Made by a program: the position numbers and the translations under genes | Notes under the pieces: generated by a model | What the model was told of the DNA's origin: nothing | Database searches by the model: none | The model's input: only the letters and a program-made list of their open reading frames with translations | Part shown: piece by piece, positions 11,135-62,503 of the stretch | How positions within the stretch are numbered: the first letter of the stretch is position 1 | How the letters are laid out: the number at the start of each line of letters is the position of its first letter | From: Okamejei kenojei | Lineage: Eukaryota | Direction: 5' to 3' | NCBI GenBank assembly: GCA_035221665.1 | Contig: CM069153.1 | Span: forward strand, 32,364,001 to 32,428,000 | DNA length: 64,000 bases

Positions 11135-11352
11135 GAAAAAAGTGCTAGATTTCTACCAACGAGCCTGTCTCTCGGGATACTGTTCGGCTTTTGCTTACAA
11201 GCCGATGCACTGCATCTTATCCTCCGAGTTGAACGGGAAATGCATCGAGTTGGTCCAGGTGCCAGGTCAGAATACCATCTTCACCTCTTATGATTTACCG
11301 GGGACCACACCCATTAAACACGGCAGCAGACGGAACAGCTGGAGCTCTGATG
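11135..11352 (+). CDS. TMEM94: TMEM94 exon (KKVLDFYQRACLSGYCSAFAYKPM...RRNSWSSD)
   Basis: tag|...|gtactt, 218 nt, phase 2/1. Confidence 0.97.
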
Positions 11353-11555
11353 GTACTTTTGTCCTTCCCAAAATTAAATGTCTTTTTTTGTACTGCGCGT
11401 GCGTTTGTGAGAGAGATTTTGTTTCTTCCTTAACTTCTGCATTGGTACCATTGACAGTTCAAGCTTTGAGACTTGTTAGCCTTTTTAATGTTACATTAAT
11501 GTTTATGTTATGGTGCAACATACTATTTTCTGCTCCCTGCCTCATTAACAATGAT

Positions 11556-11670
11556 AGACACAAAATGCTGGAGTAACTCAGCGGGTCAGGCAGCATCTCT
11601 GGAGAGAAGGAATGGGTGACGTTTCGGGTCGAGACCCTTCTTCAGACTGATGTCAGGGGAGGGGGCGGGA
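11556..11670 (-). mobile_element. Solo PLE terminal module (115 bp) with 14-bp TSD and intact hammerhead-like core
   Basis: TCATTAACAATGAT is repeated at 11542-11555 and 11671-11684. Confidence 0.88.
11618..11645 (-). ncRNA. Minimal hammerhead ribozyme-like core (CUGAAGA-A-GGGUC-UC-GACCC-GAAAC-GUC)
   Basis: Conserved core nucleotides, perfect stem II, palindromic ACGU stem III and GUC cleavage triplet. Stem I is only about 2 bp, so activity is unproven. Confidence 0.6.
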
Positions 11671-12752
11671 TCATTAACAATGATTACAGGTTTTCTGAAG
11701 AGTAGGCTGCACTACCGTCCAGGAATGTCCAGTCATTTTGCACCTCACAGTAAAATGGTTTGATCAATTATTCAGTTGCACAGGAGTTGAGAATCAGATT
11801 TGCAATTAGCATTATTTTACAATAAAAATGTTAACTTTTACATGAGCTAATGCTAGCATTGAAACAATTGGAAGAATCTTAATTTGAACTGCCGCAGTTG
11901 TTCCCCTCAATGACAAGTTTGTTAAATGAATGTTTCATTGTTGCTTTAGGTTGTATTTTTACCTACTACAACGATCTAACTGCTCTTGGGTTCATGAGGA
12001 CACAGTGTAAGTTGTAAGATAATGCTGGTATTTGTACTTCTACCATTCTCAATAGGTGTACGTGTGCTTTTGAGAATTTAAAAGGGACTGGTGAAAAAGT
12101 GAGCTGATACTTGTCCATGCCTTTCCATGAGGTAAATGTTAGGTAACATTCAGGAAATTGAATGAAAGATTGAAGTTATGGGAGCTGAGGATGAAAAGAG
12201 AGACCTTCCCTCATTGTTCTCCATCTTTGGAAAAAGTTGAGTAGTATTGCCACTGTTGTGACATTGTCGTGCTGATGGGACAGGAATGGGATTCTCCATA
12301 TCTTGAGCATGATCTTAGAGCTATTTTTTAAATTATAAACCCATGTCATAGATAGAGACAATGTTCTCCGGTCTTGATTCCCCAACACTAGGGAAAAGGG
12401 CCTGTGCATCTACCCTATATATTCCCCTCTAATAGATCTAATACGCCTCAATAAGATCACCCTTCATCCTCCTGCATGTCACAGAATCAAGTCTTAGCCT
12501 GCTAAATTTCTTCCTGTTTAGGCCCTCAAGTCCTGGCAACATCCCAGTAATTCATTTCTGCACTCTTTCCAGTTTAACAACATATTTCCAATAGCAGAGT
12601 GACAAGAACTGAACATAATACTCCAAATGTGGCCTCACCAAAGTCTTGTACAATTGTGACATAACATCCCAACCTTTCACTCCGTCAGCTGTCGCATACA
12701 ACACATAATCCTCCAATATTTTTGCCACCTCCAACAGGATCCACCACCAGCA

Positions 12753-13517
12753 ACATAGAAACATAGAAATTAGGTGCAGGAGTAGGCCATTCGGCCCTTC
12801 GAGCCTGCACCGCCATTCAATATGATCATGGCTGATCATCCAACTCTGTATCCTGTACCTGCCTTCTCTCCATACCCCCTGATCCCTTTAGCCACAAGGG
12901 CCACATCTAACTCCCTCCTAAATATAGCCAATGAAGTGGCCTCAACTACTTTCTGTGGCAGAGAATTCCAGAGATTCACCAATCTCTGTGGGGAAAAATG
13001 TTTTTCTCATCTCGGTCCTAAAAGATTTCCCCCTTATCTTTAAACTGTGACCTCTTGTTTTGGACTTCCCCAACATCGGGAACAATCTTCCTGCATCTAG
13101 CCTGTCCAACCCCTTAAGAATTTTGTAAGTTTCTATAAGATCCCCCCCCCCCCCCCCCTTCAATCTTCTAAATTCTAGCGAGTACAAGCCGAGTTTATCC
13201 AGTCTTTCTTCATATGAAAGTACTGCCATCCCAGGAATCAGTCTGGTGAACCTTCTCTGTACTCCCTCTATGGCAAGAATGTCTTTCCTCAGATTTGGAG
13301 ACCAAAACTGTACGCAATACTCCAGGTGTGGTCTCACCAAGACCCTGTACAACTGCAGTAGAACCTCCCTGCTCCTATACTCAAATCCTTTTGCTATGAA
13401 TGCTAACACACCATTTGCTTTCTTCACTGCCTGCTGCACCTGCATGCCTACTTTCAATGACCATGACACCCAGGTCTCGTTGCATCTCCCCTTTTCCTAA
13501 TCGGCCACCATTCAAAT
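12753..13517 (-). mobile_element. Younger CR1 LINE 3' end
   Basis: ORF 12942-13469(-) with VRPHLEYCVQFWSP...EGVQRRFTRLIPG and a (ctatgttt)n-type tail. Confidence 0.9.
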
Positions 13518-17799: not shown

Positions 17800-19452
17800 G
17801 TCCATTGATGGACAACAGGCGCAGGAGTAGGCCATTCGAGCCAGAACCGCCATTCACTGTGATCATGGCTGATCATCCACAATCAGTACCCCATTGCTGC
17901 CTTCTCCCCGTATTCCTCTCTTTAAGAGCTCTATCTAACTCTCTCTTGAAAGCATCCAGAGAATTGGCAGAGAATTTCACAGATTCACAACTCTCTGGGT
18001 CAAAACGTTTTTCCTCATCTCCGTTCTAAATGGCCTCTATTCTTAAATTGTGGGCCTTGGTTCTGCACTCCCCCAACATCGGGAACGTGTTTTCTGCCTC
18101 TAGTTTGTCCAATCCCTTAATAATCTTATGTTTCAATAAGATCCCCTCTCAACCTTCTAAACTCAACGCTCCATTCTTTCAAAATTTGACAGTCCAGCCA
18201 TCCCGGGAATTAACCTCGTGAACCTGCATGCCTTCAATAGCAAGAATGTCCTCCCTCAAATTTGGAGACCAAAATTGCACATAATACTCCAGGTGTGGTC
18301 TTTCCAAGGCCCTGTACAATTGCAGAAAGACCTCTTTGCTCCTATACTCAACTCCTCTTGTTATGAAGGCCAACATGCCATTAGCTTTCTTCACTGCTTG
18401 CCATACCTGCATGCTTACTTTCAGTGACTGATGTACAAGGACGCCCAGATCTCGTTGTATTTCCCCTTTTCCTAACTTGACACCATTTAGATAATAATTT
18501 GCCACCGAAGTGCCAAAACCTCACAGTTATCCACATTAAACTGCATCTGCCCACTCACCCAACCTGTCTAAGTCACCCTGGATCCTCATAGCATCCTCCT
18601 CATAGTTCACACTGCCACCCAGTTTTGTCTTCTGCAAATTTGCTAAATTACTTTTAATCCCTTCATCTAAGTCATTAATGTATATTGTAAGTAGCTGCCG
18701 TCCCAGCGACGAGCCTCGCGGCACCCCACTAGTCACTGCCTGCCATTCTGAAAGGAACCTGTTAATTCCTGTCTGCCAACCAGTTTTCTATCCATGTCAG
18801 TACCTTACCCCCAATACCATGTGTTCTAATTTTGCCCACTAATCTCCTACGTGGGACCATTATCAAAGTCTTTCTGAAAGTCCAGGTACACGTCCACTGG
18901 CTCTCCTTTGTCAATTTTCCTAGTTGCATCCTCAAGAAATTCTAGAAGATTAGTCCAGCATGATTTCCCCTTCATAAATCCATGCTGACTTGGGCCAATC
19001 CTTTTAGTGCTATCCAAATGTGCCCATATTTCATATTTTATAGGCTAACTTGTCTATAATTCCCTGTTTACTCTCTCCCTCCTTTCTTAAAAAGTAATAT
19101 AACAATAGTAATATAACAACCCCCCAATCCACAGGAACTGATCCTGAATCTATAGAACATTGGAAAATTATCACCAATGCGTCCACAATTTTGAGAACCA
19201 CTTCCTTAAGTACCCTGGGATGCAGACCATCAGGCCCTGGTGATTCATCAGCCTTCAGTCCCATCAGTCTATCCAACACCATTTCCTGCGTAATGAGAAC
19301 TTCCTTCAGTTCCCCCGTCACCCTAGGTCCTCTGGCCACTAGTACATCGGGGAGATTGTGTCATCCTTAGTGAAGACAGATCCAAAGTACCTCTTCAATT
19401 CGTCTGCCATTTCCTTGTTCCCCATAATAAATTCACCTGTTTCTGTCTTCAA
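17800..19452 (-). mobile_element. CR1 LINE, about 1.65 kb decayed ORF2 3' half
   Basis: Minus-strand ORFs with SPGPDGLHPRVLKE, SGVPRGS, IYINDLDEG and RPHLEYYVQFWSP. Confidence 0.9.
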
Positions 19453-35143: not shown

Positions 35144-35312
35144 GTGAGACTCCATTCATTACTGCAATCTCTGTAGTGTACACTTTTGTACTAAAGGACA
35201 AATCTTGGAAAACTATAAAAAATAAAGAAATGGTTCTGTAGTAGACCATATTAAAGCAGTAATCTGTAATAAACATGTATGGCTCTATAATCAGCAAAGC
35301 GCATGACATAGG

Positions 35313-35878
35313 AACATAGAAAATAGGTGCAGGAGTAGGCCACTCGGCCCTTCGAGCCTGCACCGCCATTCAATATGATCATGGCTGATCATCCAACTCA
35401 GTATCCTGTACCTGCCTTCTCTGCATACTCCCTAATCCCTTTAGCCACAAGGGCCACAAGGGCCACATCTAACTCCCTCTTAAATATAGCCAATGTACTG
35501 GCCTCAACTACTTTCTGTGGCAGAGAATTCCACAGATTCACCACTCTCTGTGTGAATTTTTTTTTTAAACCCTTATCCTTAAACTGTGACCCCTTGGTCT
35601 GGACTTCCCCAACATCGGGAACAATCTTCCTGCATCTAGCCTGTCCAACCGCTTAAGAATTTTGTAAGTTTCTATGATCCCCCCTTAATCGTCTAAATTC
35701 TAGTGAGTACAAGCCAAGTCTATCCAGTCATTCTTCATATGAAAGTCCTGCCATCCCGGGAATCAGTCTGGTGAACCTTCTCTGTACTCCCTCTATGGCA
35801 AGAATGTATTTCTTCAGATTAGCAGACCAAAACTGTACGCAATACTCCAGGAGTGGTCTCACCAAGGCCCTGTACAAT
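35313..35878 (-). mobile_element. CR1 3' fragment, same subfamily as 12753-13517
   Basis: Near-identical tail sequence with an internal 9-bp slippage duplication gccacaagg. Confidence 0.88.
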
Positions 35879-43768: not shown

Positions 43769-44123
43769 GTAAGTGCATCGGTTTACAAGGATCAGAAATA
43801 ACAGTTGCCCTGGAGGTTGTCAGCTTGCAGCCAGAGTCCTCCCACAAGAAGTTGAGAACATTCTTGCTACTTGAATATTGGTAAGCTTAACAATGATAAT
43901 TTAATTTAGAATATCAATAATTGCAGCTGTTGAATCTGTATGTGAAAAATAAGTGAAAAAATAATTCTGATTAAAAATTGTCATAAAATACACATTGAAA
44001 ATCTTATTGGGTCCTTGGGATTATTCACGGGACATGGTGTAAGGCTTTATTCTCATCTCTCTCATCCTATGGAAAGTTGGACTGTTTTGGATAAATCCCA
44101 TTCCCAATTCTAGTTGATAAGTA

Positions 44124-44710
44124 GACTAAAGTGCTGGAGAAACCCAGCGGGTGCGGCAGCGTCTATGGAGCGAAGGAAATAGGCAATGTTTTGGGCCGAA
44201 ACCCTTCTTCAGACTGATGTAGGGTGGAGGGGGCGGGAAGAAGAAAGGAAGAGGAGGAGCCAGAGGACTGAGAGAGAGCTGAGATGGGGAGGAGGCAGCA
44301 ATAAGGGCTACCGGAAATTGGAGAATTCAACGTTCAGGCTGCTGGGGTATAAACTGCCCAAGTGAAATATGAGGTGCTGCTCCTCCAATTTCCAGTGGTG
44401 CTCACTTTGGCCATGGAGGAGGCCCAGGACAGAAAGGTTGGATTTGGAATGGCGGGGGGGGGGTAGTTGAAGTGCTGACCCACCGGGAGATCAGGTAGGT
44501 TATTGCGGACCGAGCAGAGGTGTTCGGCGAAACGATCGCCAAGCCTACGCTTGGTCTCACCGATACCCCCACCCTACATCAGTCTGAAGAAGGGTTTTGG
44601 CCCGAAATGTTGCCTATTTCCTTCACTCCATAGATGCTGCCGCACCCGCTGAGTTTCTCCAGCACTTTTGTCTACCTTTGGTTTTCCAGCATCTGCAATT
44701 CCTTCTTAAA
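44124..44710. mobile_element. Penelope-like insertion with about 105-bp inverted terminal modules and a 14-bp TSD
   Basis: CTAGTTGATAAGTA at 44110-44123 and 44711-44724. Arms 44124-44228 and about 44566-44674 are inverted. The interior encodes a GIY-YIG C-terminal remnant on the minus strand. Confidence 0.9.
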
Positions 44711-45129
44711 CTAGTTGATAAGTAACCAGTTTGCTTCCACTTCCAACTTTCTGATATCACACTGCTGCAGTGTCTTGGGCTAACTCCTCATCTACAAGTT
44801 ATTGCTGTGACCTGGGTCTTTTCTACAGGGCCAGAATGCTTTAATGTTTATGGCTGGCTGGCTGCCTGCCTGATCCATTTCCTGTAAAATCCTTCTCTCC
44901 ATACATCTTTTTGGCTGCACAGTCATTCATTAGATCCCCGTCTCTTGGTGCTCTGCTTGTTCCTTGTGAAGCTTGGATTGAATTTCTGCACAGCAAAATG
45001 GTTAGGCTGCAGATTCTTGATTGAGACTTCAATTTTGTGCCTTCTCATTGCTGAATTTACTTCTCCTTTCATTCTTTCGACCGTGGTAATGTCCTGCAAT
45101 TTGGACCTTTACATTCTTTTCACGGCTTA

Positions 45130-46076: not shown

Positions 46077-48912
46077 CACTGGGAAAAGTGCTGATGAGCC
46101 AAGTTGCTATCTGGAGAGGAGCAGCAACTTCTGGACCGACTTCTGATAGGTCAAGCCAAGGAACTGGCCCACAAACATTGTTTTACTACTGCATGAAGAC
46201 TTCAAAACTGCACTAGAAATTGAAAACCTCACAACAATTGAAGGGGTTTACCAGATACCTCAGGTCAAACACACAGAGCATAGAGATGGGAGCTTCAGGA
46301 AGTGGAACCTGGAAATGCACATTTGTGTAAGCTAAAGTGGAAAAAGACCCTTATGTAACAGTTGGCCTTCAGAAACCGGAGAGAGATTCAACATTACATC
46401 TTTCTCACCATGCGTATGTGGGGAATACATCTCCGTGTCAGAAGTGAAGAAATGAGACGTCAGCAAAGGAAATAACATTGGTTGTGGCTTTACAAGCAAA
46501 TTGTGAATCCTTCCCACAAGGATTTGTTGAGTGTCCCCTTTTCCAGTTTTGTGGGTTTCAGGTGACAATAAGGAAAGTGACCCTTATGTGGCAGTTGGTA
46601 ATGATATACTCTGAGCCCTTAACCTTTAAAGTGTCTTAGGAAGCAGGAATCTTATCGCTGCCTCCCATTTTTAAATTCCTTCCATCTTGTGGACTTCCTA
46701 GCTGCCACAGCAGTATCCATTAAGCAGTAGGGAATCCCTTCACACTCGGTTAGGTTGCTTCTGCAAGCTGCTAGGAGGTGCTATATGGTTTTAGATCAGA
46801 GACCCCACCAGAATCAGGATTTGCTCTGTCAAGCCCAGCCATGCACATTCAGCTCAATGAAGTACTTGGCTTGTTTTTGTGTGTATGTGTATGCCCCCGT
46901 GTGTCTATACAGTGCCAAGCTGACTGTATTTTAGAGGTATTGTAGATTATATCCAACGTAATTCTATATTGGATGAGTGTGGGATTAGGCTAAATGTTTC
47001 AAATCATCAGTTCACATGCTGTCTTATTTTTTCAGTCAAAGAATTGATTGCTTGATTTGACTGGATCAGTCCAAAAGCAAATTGCTGCTAGAAATCTGAA
47101 ATAAAATTACAATGTTGGAAGTACTCTGGCAGTATCTGTGGGTAGAGAGATAATATTCCAAGTTAATGACTTTTCACCAGACGTCAGATCTCTAGCACTG
47201 ATTTTACACAGTCTGCGAGATGAGAAGGAAATTGAAGTGTTGCTACCTGAGCACATTGATCTTGTACTCAAAAATTGCAACTCTCATTCATGACATTGCA
47301 GGAAAATAGTGCTGCAGCTTCTCGTCTTTTATGGAAGTGTGTTCATCTTCTGATTCATTATCTTCTCTAGTTCAAAGTGAAGAAGGGAGTGTGCCACCTT
47401 GCTTGGCCTTTCAACCTTGGTATCTATCAGTGGCTTTCCATTCACATGTAGAATGAAATTTTGGCCTAGAAATTGTTGCACAGAAATGAAAGAGCATGCT
47501 TTTACTACCCATTTCAAGTGACAGATGGTCAGATGGTCTCTGAGTTAAAGCAGCACGGTGGAATTATAACCGGGCATTTCCTGTCTTGAACCAATATTGT
47601 TCTGCCAACACACTTCCACATCGGATGTATGCAGAATAACATCATGCCTGTGCCATGCTTTTTAAGGGGTGTTGCAAAGGGAGCAATTAGTTAATACGAT
47701 TCAAAAGTGTGGGGAATTCTCAAACTGTGCAGGTGTCCACAGTGCTGCCACCTGAGCCTGTCCCAGCCCATCACTCCAAGCCTGACTTGGTTAGGTTACC
47801 TGACTGACTGGCTTTCTGTCTGTCACAAGTCCCCTACATCCACTCGCCTTTCTCACAGTCCCATAGTATAGCCCACCCATCCACCACTCCCCAAAATATC
47901 AAATTGAGGGCCTCCATTTCACACCAGACACTTATCACAAATTAAACTCGAGCTTCCCTCCCACCAAGCTGGTGATCACAGTTAACCTGAACCTGTCGTG
48001 TTTTTATCATCTTGCTCTCTGTGCCAGTGAAAGTGATAGGAAAAGATCTTACCTTGGTGTATGGTTCATTCTGTAGCATCCAGCCCGTTGAACCATGGGT
48101 GCCACTGAACTTTAAAGCAGTTGAATAACCATCATTTCCTCGATCTGCCATATATTGGTGAATTAACATGTCAGCCTGGGCAGAGAGGAATTTCCTGTCC
48201 ATCTTGTCCAATGCAAATTGCCATTTTGGCTACCCCAAGTTAAATTGCTAACCTTTTTAAGTATTGGGCACTTTGGATTGTAGAGATAATGTGGCTTCAT
48301 ATACATGTGGTTGGATGGTGTTATTCAGTCCTCCAGCTTCTAAAAGGCCTGTGCACTGCTTCACAACCACATTTTCCTTTCACCATCACCTCTCCTGTTT
48401 CCATGTCCCTATTTGTAGCTGTTTAAATCTTCAATATTTCCAAAATTACATCAATCCTTGCACTGATGCACTGCAAAAATTGTGACATATACTAATTGTT
48501 GCATATTTCCACATATGAAAGACTCATTACTCTTGTGCTAAGGACTGGCTCATCAGGTAACGTGTATCATTCAAAGTAATACACGTGTATAAATTGGCAC
48601 TAACCACAGGTATTGTTTATATAGCAACTGATTTGTGGTGTATCATTGCCCCCTGATGATGTAGTTGTTAAACTCCAGTGAGTTTTAGAATGTGTTTTGA
48701 TTTTCAGCAAGGCTTGGCGAAGAAGGCAGAACCATTAACAGATTAAATTGCCAGTTTAGCAATTGCTTGTTTTTATCTTGTTACACAAAATGCCTTGCAA
48801 TTCCTCACACAAGCCTTCAAAGATGCCAAATTAGATCTCTTGCTACACTGTTCAATTCAGTGATTACAAAAAATAGTTTTGTTTTTGAGAAACCACGTCT
48901 GCTCTTTTCAAA

Positions 48913-49066
48913 TGTGTAGGAAGAGACTGCAGATGCTGGTTTAAACTGAAGATAGACACAAAATGCTGGATGTCTGAAGAAAGGTCTCGACCTGAAACAT
49001 CACCCATTCCTTGTCTCCAGAGATGCTGCCTGTCCCACTGATTTACTCCAGCATTTTGTGTCTATC
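48913..49066. mobile_element. PLE terminal-module palindrome in the candidate TMEM94 3' UTR
   Basis: gatagacacaaaatgctgga is inverted with tccagcattttgtgtctatc. Imperfect flanking repeat gtctgct(c/t)ttt. Sense hammerhead-like core at 48974-49001. Confidence 0.8.
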
Positions 49067-49656
49067 GTCTGCTTTTTCCAAGATTGTTATTGTACTGTTG
49101 AATGTTCACTTCACTGATAGTGTGTTAGACAGGAAGCCAGACATTCTGTGACTGTGAAGTTATTCCATGTGATAGTCCTGTAAATTTATACAAGTTTTGA
49201 GTTCTCATGAAGTCTGTTTTGCTGTATTATCTTTTGTGGCCCTGTAACTGGTTGAACTGGAGCAGTGAAGCAGTTTTCAATTGCATTCCGTTTCCAGGTA
49301 TTTTGTGTTTAGAAAGCAGCTGTGGCTTTCAAAGGTGGCAACGGTCAAGTTCAACAATCGGGAGCCTCCAAAACAACTAATGACAGCACTGATTTCAAAA
49401 TTACCACCGGATAATGCACAGAAAACATCTCTTACCTGTCCACAGGCAGGTTGCTTAGTCACATGTATGTGCTGCCGGGGAAGTGACAAATCGCCTTTGG
49501 TGTTGCCTTTAGTTACAGGCTAACGAAGTGTGCCCTGCCTGCAATGAAATCATTGAGAACAACATGCCAGAATTAACCCTTGGCCAGTCCTTGGAGATGC
49601 AGGCCCACTGCCCACAGTTGCCACCTACAACCCAGGCATAACTGGGACAAATAAAA

Positions 49657-49841
49657 TGTATAAGAAGGAACTGCAGACGCTGGTCTATACTGAAGAGAGA
49701 CACAAAATGCTGGAGTAATTCTGCGGGTCAGGCAGCATCTCTGGAGAAAAGGAATGGGTGATGTTTCGGGTCAGAGCCCTTCAGAAATTATTTTGAAGGG
49801 TTTCGACCCGAAACGTCACCAATTCCTTTTCTCCAGAGATG
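49657..49841. mobile_element. PLE terminal-module palindrome in the candidate TMEM94 3' UTR
   Basis: Arms 49736-49783 and 49793-49841 form a hairpin. Confidence 0.8.
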
Positions 49842-61507: not shown

Positions 61508-62275
61508 TCATAGAAACATAGAAAATAGGTGCAGGAATAGGCCATTCAGCCCTTTGAGCCAGCAGCACCAATCGATATGGTCATGGCTAATCATTCAAAA
61601 TCAGTATCCCGTTCCTGCTTTCTCCCCATATCCCTTGAATCCGTTAGCCCGTCATCTTCTTATTGAGTCCACAACCAAGATTAGAAGTTGTTCAGCCAGA
61701 GCTGAACACATTTCTCAGCATCTGCATACAATGGTGCCTGTCTTGTCTCTTCTTGTGCGTGGTGGTGGAAACAGGGCTGCAACATGAACGCTCTTTCCTT
61801 GACCCCCCCCCCCCCCCCCCCCAGACCTCGTTAGTCCTAACAGCTAAATATCTCTCTATTGAAAACATCCAGTGAATTGGCCTCCATTGCCTTGTGCAGC
61901 AGAGAATTCCACAGATTCACAACTTTCTGGGTGAAAAAGGTTTTCCTCATCTCAGTTCTAAATGGCCTACCCCTTATTCTTACACTGTGATCCCTGGTTC
62001 TGGACTCCCCCAACATCGGGAACATTTTTCCTGTATCTAGCCTGTCTAATTCCTTAAGAATTTAATATGTTTCTGCGAATATAAGCCCAGTCGACCCATT
62101 CTTTCATCATATGTCAATGCCGCCATCCCGAGAATTAACCTTGTGAACCTACGCTGCACTCCCTCAATAGCAAGAATGTCCTTCCTCAAATTAGGAGACC
62201 ATAACTGCACACAATACTTCAGGTGTGGTCTCATCAGGGCCCTGTACAATTGCAGAAGGACCTCCTTGCTCCAAG
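61508..62275 (-). mobile_element. CR1 3' fragment interrupted by a 178-bp unknown insert
   Basis: ORFs 61837-62025 and 62046-62282(-) are CR1 RT C-terminal remnants. The insert spans 61651-61828. Confidence 0.85.
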
Positions 62276-62503
62276 ACTCCAATCAAGTCATACAGGGAGA
62301 GCAGAGTATTTATTTTAGAAAGATGTTGAAGGTAGAAGCTAGGATAGCAGATCTGCCATGAAGTTACTGACTGATGTAGCAGAATGTTAATCTCTTCCTT
62401 CTGTTTTGCCAGTTTGCCTCCTCTCCCCACTGTAGGATGGATTGCTCAGTGAGAGGTGTATTCGCGGTGTTACAGGAGATGGGTGCTCATTGCCACTGGT
62501 TAC

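Follow-up and report, generated by a model that had tools for sequence, protein, structure and literature searches.

The 115-nt insertion described here is very probably a single 5′-truncated, tail-less 3′ end of an abundant Neptune-type Penelope-like element (PLE), likely to have been copied from an uncut RNA by the enzyme that the element encodes. In its nature and mode of action it falls among the endonuclease-bearing PLEs with a minimal hammerhead, as a truncated member. The insertion lies within a 64,000-nt stretch of the genome of the skate Okamejei kenojei, referred to below as the window, and all coordinates given without a locus name are positions in that stretch. A single copy carries little weight in itself; its value is that of a clean fossil of PLE integration, preserving a 14-bp stagger, an internal start and an uncut hammerhead. 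The family to which it belongs constitutes a very large natural data set on where PLE reverse transcription starts and stops and on the purpose of minimal hammerheads. The features of the locus are as follows.

11135..11352, plus strand: TMEM94-like host exon, its translation matching TMEM94 residues 750-821 (E 1e-35), with AG and GT at its borders
11542..11555, no strand: left copy of the putative 14-bp target-site duplication, whose final 1-3 nt coincide with the bases that come next in the element
11556..11670, minus strand: probable 5′-truncated tail-less 3′ end (part of the pseudo-LTR) of a Neptune-type PLE
11556..11617, minus strand: conserved 62 nt from the hammerhead cut site to the tail-less 3′ end, at which 107 of 214 unselected copies end
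11616..11647, minus strand: minimal type I hammerhead motif, with the cut site after GUC at 11618/11617 (consensus for comparison from the supplement of PMC4209133)
11641..11652, minus strand: zone holding the 5′ ends of most family members, with a peak at 11646-11648, through which the 115-nt copy runs
11648..11670, minus strand: stretch rich in pyrimidines and characteristic of one subfamily, lying upstream of the hammerhead and ending at the unique truncation point
11671..11684, no strand: right copy of the putative 14-bp target-site duplication

The insertion and its genomic setting

The 14-mer TCATTAACAATGAT occurs at both 11542-11555 and 11671-11684, the two copies being identical and incapable of extension on either side, and between them lie the 115 nt of the insert (11556-11670); the 115-bp insertion and the perfect 14-bp repeats that had been predicted were both confirmed. 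At this insert it is the repeat itself that suggests a 14-bp target-site duplication. Shared junction strings of at least 11 nt were present in 11 of the 91 real copies anchored on the same 39-nt core, this insert included, and in none of 2000 mismatched flank pairs. The 14-bp duplication is self-complementary (0.77); a preference for palindromic targets was considered and rejected, the 22 other duplications scoring 0.47 against 0.48 in shuffles (p 0.64). BLAST of the insert against the window returned 22 matches, counting the insert itself and very short ones, so that the description of it as a "solo" insertion holds for the locus and fails for the window.

The insert lies 190 nt behind the TMEM94-like exon and presumably sits in an intron of that gene. 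It is oriented opposite to the exon, and the host transcript would therefore carry the hammerhead in antisense. TMEM94 is an ER magnesium-transporting P-type ATPase. The insert is also found at the orthologous position in three further organisms; their contigs run from the left flank into it, indicating that the insertion is older than their split; the right flank junction is clearly shared in two of the three (X21, X24), the flanks of the three differ at 3-4% of letters, and no empty orthologous site was present among the junctions listed from the contigs of other organisms. At 114 of 115 positions the insert agrees with the majority of 30 copies from its subfamily, the differing site being itself polymorphic; with this one difference, against 2-31 in the 30 others, it lies nearer to that majority than any other of the 31 copies compared.

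The family is abundant. A 39-mer of the insert core has 670 exact occurrences in the 2.76-Gb genome, a neighboring 39-mer has 5,669 and a 40-mer of the sister subfamily has 26,936. An unselected sample of 60 stretches of 10 kb (600 kb) contained 214 family arms, with fold-back arms counted separately (212 once two near-duplicates are dropped), and extrapolation from these 214 gives roughly a million similar pieces in the genome. Behind the 26,936 exact 40-mers stands a very young, homogeneous subfamily (L211-L240, G000:C1:34196 onward), whose copies are the most suitable ones in which to map ends and to seek an active master.

Relationship to coding Penelope-like elements

The insert aligns over 107 nt, at 94% identity, with the end of the copy at locus L164, directly behind a reverse transcriptase (RT) and GIY-YIG frame. 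The 115-nt copy itself is without a coding part, the coding evidence coming from family members: longer copies (L164, L163, L165 and others) extend into a frame with RT motifs, a C-x4-CxxC linker and a GIY-YIG domain. Of the two options put forward in the original prediction, that of a severely truncated PLE proved right, given this continuity with coding copies and the match to L164. Pfam GIY-YIG scored above the cut-off in one of three frames tested and more weakly in the other two, while in one 722-aa frame RVT_1 (E 6e-5) and GIY-YIG were both below the cut-off; none of the loci fetched held an intact full-length reading frame. Between RT and endonuclease the family frames have a linker with a CNRRKCYTC-type motif, and a CX2-5CxxC linker at this place marks Neptune and Nematis in the available text of PMC8557442. 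The motif thus points to a family of probable Neptune or Nematis type.

Variable 5′ truncation, inverted and partial-tandem copies, and an end repeat ahead of the frame are all present in the family, and its longest copies (L305, L312) open with the same hammerhead and tail before the frame, which is the usual pseudo-LTR layout. In the full-length 5′ region of these copies (L305:846-1300 and L312), hammerhead and tail are followed by a likely start codon that lies in a splice-donor-like context, with a possible acceptor about 130 nt downstream, so delimiting a putative intron.

The hammerhead motif

The minus strand reads a complete minimal hammerhead core as had been claimed, its letters having been verified position by position: U2.1 and G2.2 at 11646-11647, CUGAAGA at 11645-11639, an extra A at 11638, GGGUC-UC-GACCC at 11637-11626, GAAA at 11625-11622 and C-G-U-C at 11621-11618. 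The features of minimal hammerheads that are present comprise CUGANGA, the extra base after A9, a helix II starting with G-C, GAAA, the palindromic 15.2-16.2 and UH. A palindromic ACGU stands where helix III would be, and helix I has 2 bp only (U-A and G-C). A 2-nt loop is too short to close a helix, and helix II is presumably better taken as 4 bp with a 4-nt loop.

Two computational checks had been proposed for this motif, with opposite outcomes. A minimal-hammerhead descriptor recovered the core, giving two cores in the window and 17 in an unselected 600 kb of the genome; each of five shuffles of those 600 kb gave none. Rfam hammerhead models gave no gathering-level match in the window and none to E = 10 within 11400-11800. 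Among the descriptor matches in all fetched loci, a selected set, helix I had 2 bp in 230 of 278, and position 1.1 was A or G, either of which pairs with U2.1. The lowest-energy fold of the insert differs from the hammerhead and does not surpass the folds of shuffles (z -0.34, -0.61, 0.02).

Because the insert spans the cleavage site, the template RNA must have been uncut. Ends within 3 nt of the cut site were found in only 4 of 214 copies, and cleavage-defined copy ends were accordingly rejected. For the motif tested in vitro in PMC4209133, as reported in its accessible portion, a lone minimal hammerhead was inactive and dimers were weakly active, and in the corresponding portion of PMC11167929 hammerhead mutants of the Poseidon element of Anolis (PAc) insert normally in vitro, the motif cleaving only with protein. 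The few cut-site ends and the uncut template agree with these anole and 2014 results, and the hammerhead is therefore best read here as a passenger. For the lone 115-nt copy, with its 2-bp helix I and its antisense orientation to the host gene, no cleavage is predicted, and the motif is likely to be idle.

3′ and 5′ ends of family copies

The 3′ ends of the 214 unselected arms fall mainly at two places, 107 being tail-less as in the insert, 75 lying about 40 nt further out and 32 elsewhere, and public contigs, probably of DNA, have loose ends at the same two places. At its 5′ end the insert stands alone. Its last 34 nt have 331 genomic matches, of which 308 continue with the element's next base (30 of these were viewed), 22 continue into the element after a substitution, and one, the insert itself, stops. 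The 5′ ends of 90 core-anchored siblings are scattered between +41 and about +1330 and do not peak at +57, in a pattern search blind to ends before +39, and siblings extend past 1.3 kb into the reading frame. Repeats of 11-18 nt at both junctions were seen in 23 of 301 copies, around inserts of 53-1293 nt, at least one of the 23 (L139) reflecting repetition within a tandem array. Elsewhere in the window, at 44110-44123 and 44711-44724, another perfect 14-bp duplication surrounds a 587-nt insert with reading-frame sequence.

Given the unique 5′ end, the varied siblings and the duplications around inserts of other sizes, the 115-nt length is an accident of one event. There is no 115-nt family, since fixed 5′ and 3′ ends are not shared by many copies (1/331), and the second option of the original prediction, that of an independent small ribozyme-bearing element, is accordingly unsupported for the 115-nt unit. 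The 587-nt insert within 44110-44724 consists of an endonuclease fragment and an inverted tailed end; on its plus strand, at 44584, lies the other intact core of the window.

Accumulation of 5′ ends at the hammerhead edge

The 5′ ends of the family as a whole are not uniformly random, and their accumulation at the 5′ edge of the hammerhead is unexplained by plain 5′ truncation. In the unselected sample 84 of 214 arms end at +28 to +40. Among exact-match copies, about 24 of 30 in subfamily A and 19 of 30 in subfamily B stop at the hammerhead edge, with 6 and 10, respectively, running on; the ungapped end calls stop early at indels, and L216, L186, L190 and L206 were reassigned by eye to the copies that run on. 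The accumulation is spread over 12 nt at the 5′ strand of helix I, giving unit lengths of about 95 and 135 nt, and is no alignment artefact because several such copies show a duplication right behind the stop. The 115-nt insert ends 18-29 nt beyond this zone, 23 nt past the hammerhead.

A sharp length peak with fixed ends had been proposed as a sign of an independent family, and for the family as a whole the answer is mixed. A pile-up of 5′ ends does exist, but it stands at the hammerhead edge and is 12 nt wide, and short and long copies belong to the same subfamily. These copies carry the same 40-nt subfamily signature, the long ones being coding and reaching into the endonuclease frame, and such shared sequence would speak for repeated production from the same masters over a separate family.

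The pile-up site consists of pyrimidines followed by CAG and resembles a 3′ splice site; it fits both the initiator and the 3′ splice site consensus, in subfamilies with differing upstream sequence. Tests of splicing as the cause of the stop zone were negative: the flanks behind it hold no common upstream exon and only inverted copies, and a probe for copies in which the reading-frame end, the one donor considered, is joined to the hammerhead found only 4 places. In D. virilis the start is placed about 125 nt upstream, and the intervening intron ends next to helix I.

The full-length copy L312 starts in the pile-up zone and several tandem junctions also fall there, which fits the zone as an RNA 5′ end and equally as a stall. 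If the zone were the RNA 5′ end, reverse transcription might start at the nearby tail sites and, much as in the synthesis of retroviral strong-stop DNA, reach the end of its template once about 95 or 135 nt have been copied; the pieces would land alone, fold back or jump to other RNA, and the 115-nt copy would be a less common read-through from a downstream end repeat. We offer this reading tentatively, as possible rather than probable. If true, strong-stop pieces would account for the fact that PLEs have end repeats, inversions and tandems. The stop zone at the hammerhead edge is a testable clue to PLE start and stop. No description of such a pile-up was found in the PLE literature covered. 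Among the copies in L321-L350 that extend past the tail, most break off 50-140 nt beyond it at a joint with another 5′-truncated end, and these junctions suggest template jumps between RNAs.

Integration and comparison with known elements

A route to the insert can be proposed from the available text of PMC11167929 and from target-primed reverse transcription in general. The GIY-YIG endonuclease would cut an AT-rich target with a 14-nt stagger; reverse transcription would start at the inner of two RNA start sites, and copying would pass through the uncut hammerhead to stop 23 nt beyond it; gap filling by repair would then yield the two copies of the 14-bp duplication. On the basis of that study and of the copy ends, the start point would lie at 11556 or a few nt beyond. 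The tail of the anole element lies between two internal reverse-transcription start sites (PMC11167929, in the text at hand), and the skate family resembles Poseidon PAc in having two such putative sites that delimit the tail, in an uncut RNA template and in an AT-rich target with ATT on both strands. PAc belongs to another clade and its frame starts inside the hammerhead, whereas in the skate family the first likely start codon appears to lie behind the tail.

With the endonuclease-bearing PLEs of the Neptune and Nematis types, as they are portrayed in the accessible parts of PMC8557442 and PMC3846280, the family shares the order of RT, CX2-5CxxC linker and GIY-YIG, heavy 5′ truncation, an optional 30-40-nt tail, and inverted and partial-tandem copies. 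It differs in its target duplications, 11-18 bp against 8-10 bp in rotifer (PMC3846280), in its very high copy number (214 arms/600 kb) and in the piling of 5′ ends at the hammerhead edge. The minimal hammerheads of metazoan PLE end repeats documented in the available portion of PMC4209133 have the same CUGANGA with one extra base, G10.1-C11.1 and GAAA, and the palindromic C-G-U-C of the insert is as in the fugu Xena element. Helix I is different, being 2 bp with U-A or U-G closing here, against typically 3-5 bp there, the few 2-bp examples being all G-C. Most minimal hammerheads in that source are dispersed single motifs ascribed to truncated PLEs, and its 2014 hammerhead alignment, in the portion available, includes no cartilaginous fish. 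Minimal hammerheads, tails and 5′ truncation of PLEs have already been published, as has every feature noted in the original prediction, and it is the family-level pile-up that is unusual. The literature on PLEs in skates, sharks and cartilaginous fish and on solo pLTRs yielded no paper on this family, Repbase, Dfam and the supplements of the 2026 preprint lying outside the scope of that search.

Alternative explanations

Membership of the insert in a separate family of short, non-autonomous, retrozyme-like hammerhead elements that PLE proteins mobilise is very unlikely, even though short copies are the prevailing form in the genome, their 5′ ends cluster at the hammerhead edge and their 3′ ends fall at two fixed places, and head-to-tail joints of 92-99-nt units occur in public DNA contigs and at loci L238-L240. 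Animal retrozymes are traced to the end repeats of PLEs in a 2026 preprint, whose available text admits minimal hammerheads as retrozyme motifs too (bioRxiv 10.64898/2026.07.22.740005). Non-LTR retrozymes resemble the insert in being non-coding, in having a type I hammerhead and in their kinship to PLE end repeats; however, as characterized in the accessible parts of PMC7229834 and bioRxiv 10.64898/2026.07.22.740005, they are 150-450-bp tandem repeats with mostly canonical hammerheads and circular RNAs, whereas the insert is monomeric, 115 nt long, minimal in its core and unique in its end, having neither tandem repeats nor a helix III loop nor a canonical hammerhead. Its 5′ end, unique among the 331 matches, lies outside the pile-up, which itself covers 12 nt rather than a single base, and the signature common to short copies and to long ones reaching the endonuclease frame again tells against a separate family. 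As an account of the 115-nt unit, a retrozyme-like independent family is largely refuted. Head-to-tail tandems of about 88-105-nt units, joined near the hammerhead edge, occur at L238, L239 and L240 and at contig junctions, and are the nearest to retrozyme-like dimers within the family.

Selective retention of the copy because it serves the host gene, for instance through an antisense transcript or an RNA structure, would suit its orthologous presence in three organisms at 3-4% flank divergence and its position nearest the majority among 31 copies, but we regard it as highly improbable. At that divergence we estimate that about 2 changes would be expected per 115 nt, so that 0-1 is unremarkable, and the closeness to the majority can be explained by the way the copy came to attention, the original prediction having picked the most intact of about 20; the hammerhead, moreover, is antisense to the host gene and the fold is not special. 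Hardly credible is the notion that later deletion or recombination cut a longer insertion down to the short unit. Rotifer solo end repeats lacking duplications have been ascribed to such events (PMC3846280, in the text available), yet here the right 14-mer abuts the element with 0 bases between, and a deletion would have needed to hit the exact old junction; the right junction, moreover, is the same in X21 and X24. A single truncated PLE end thus remains the preferred reading of the insert.

Other sequences of the family and its surroundings

Two short fold-back insertions of the same PLE family lie in the window at 48910-49069 and 49657-49841. Tandem arrays with a 54-68-nt unit from downstream of helix II, without the CUGAAGA half, occur at L133:1580-1850, L139, L164:6270-6500 and L215. 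At L170:2-1735, beside a PLE copy, a long frame resembles by eye what we take to be a NACHT-domain (NLR-type) immune gene. Another dispersed repeat family has several long copies in the window, at 12753-13500, 17808-18487, 35306-35878 and 61509-62284.
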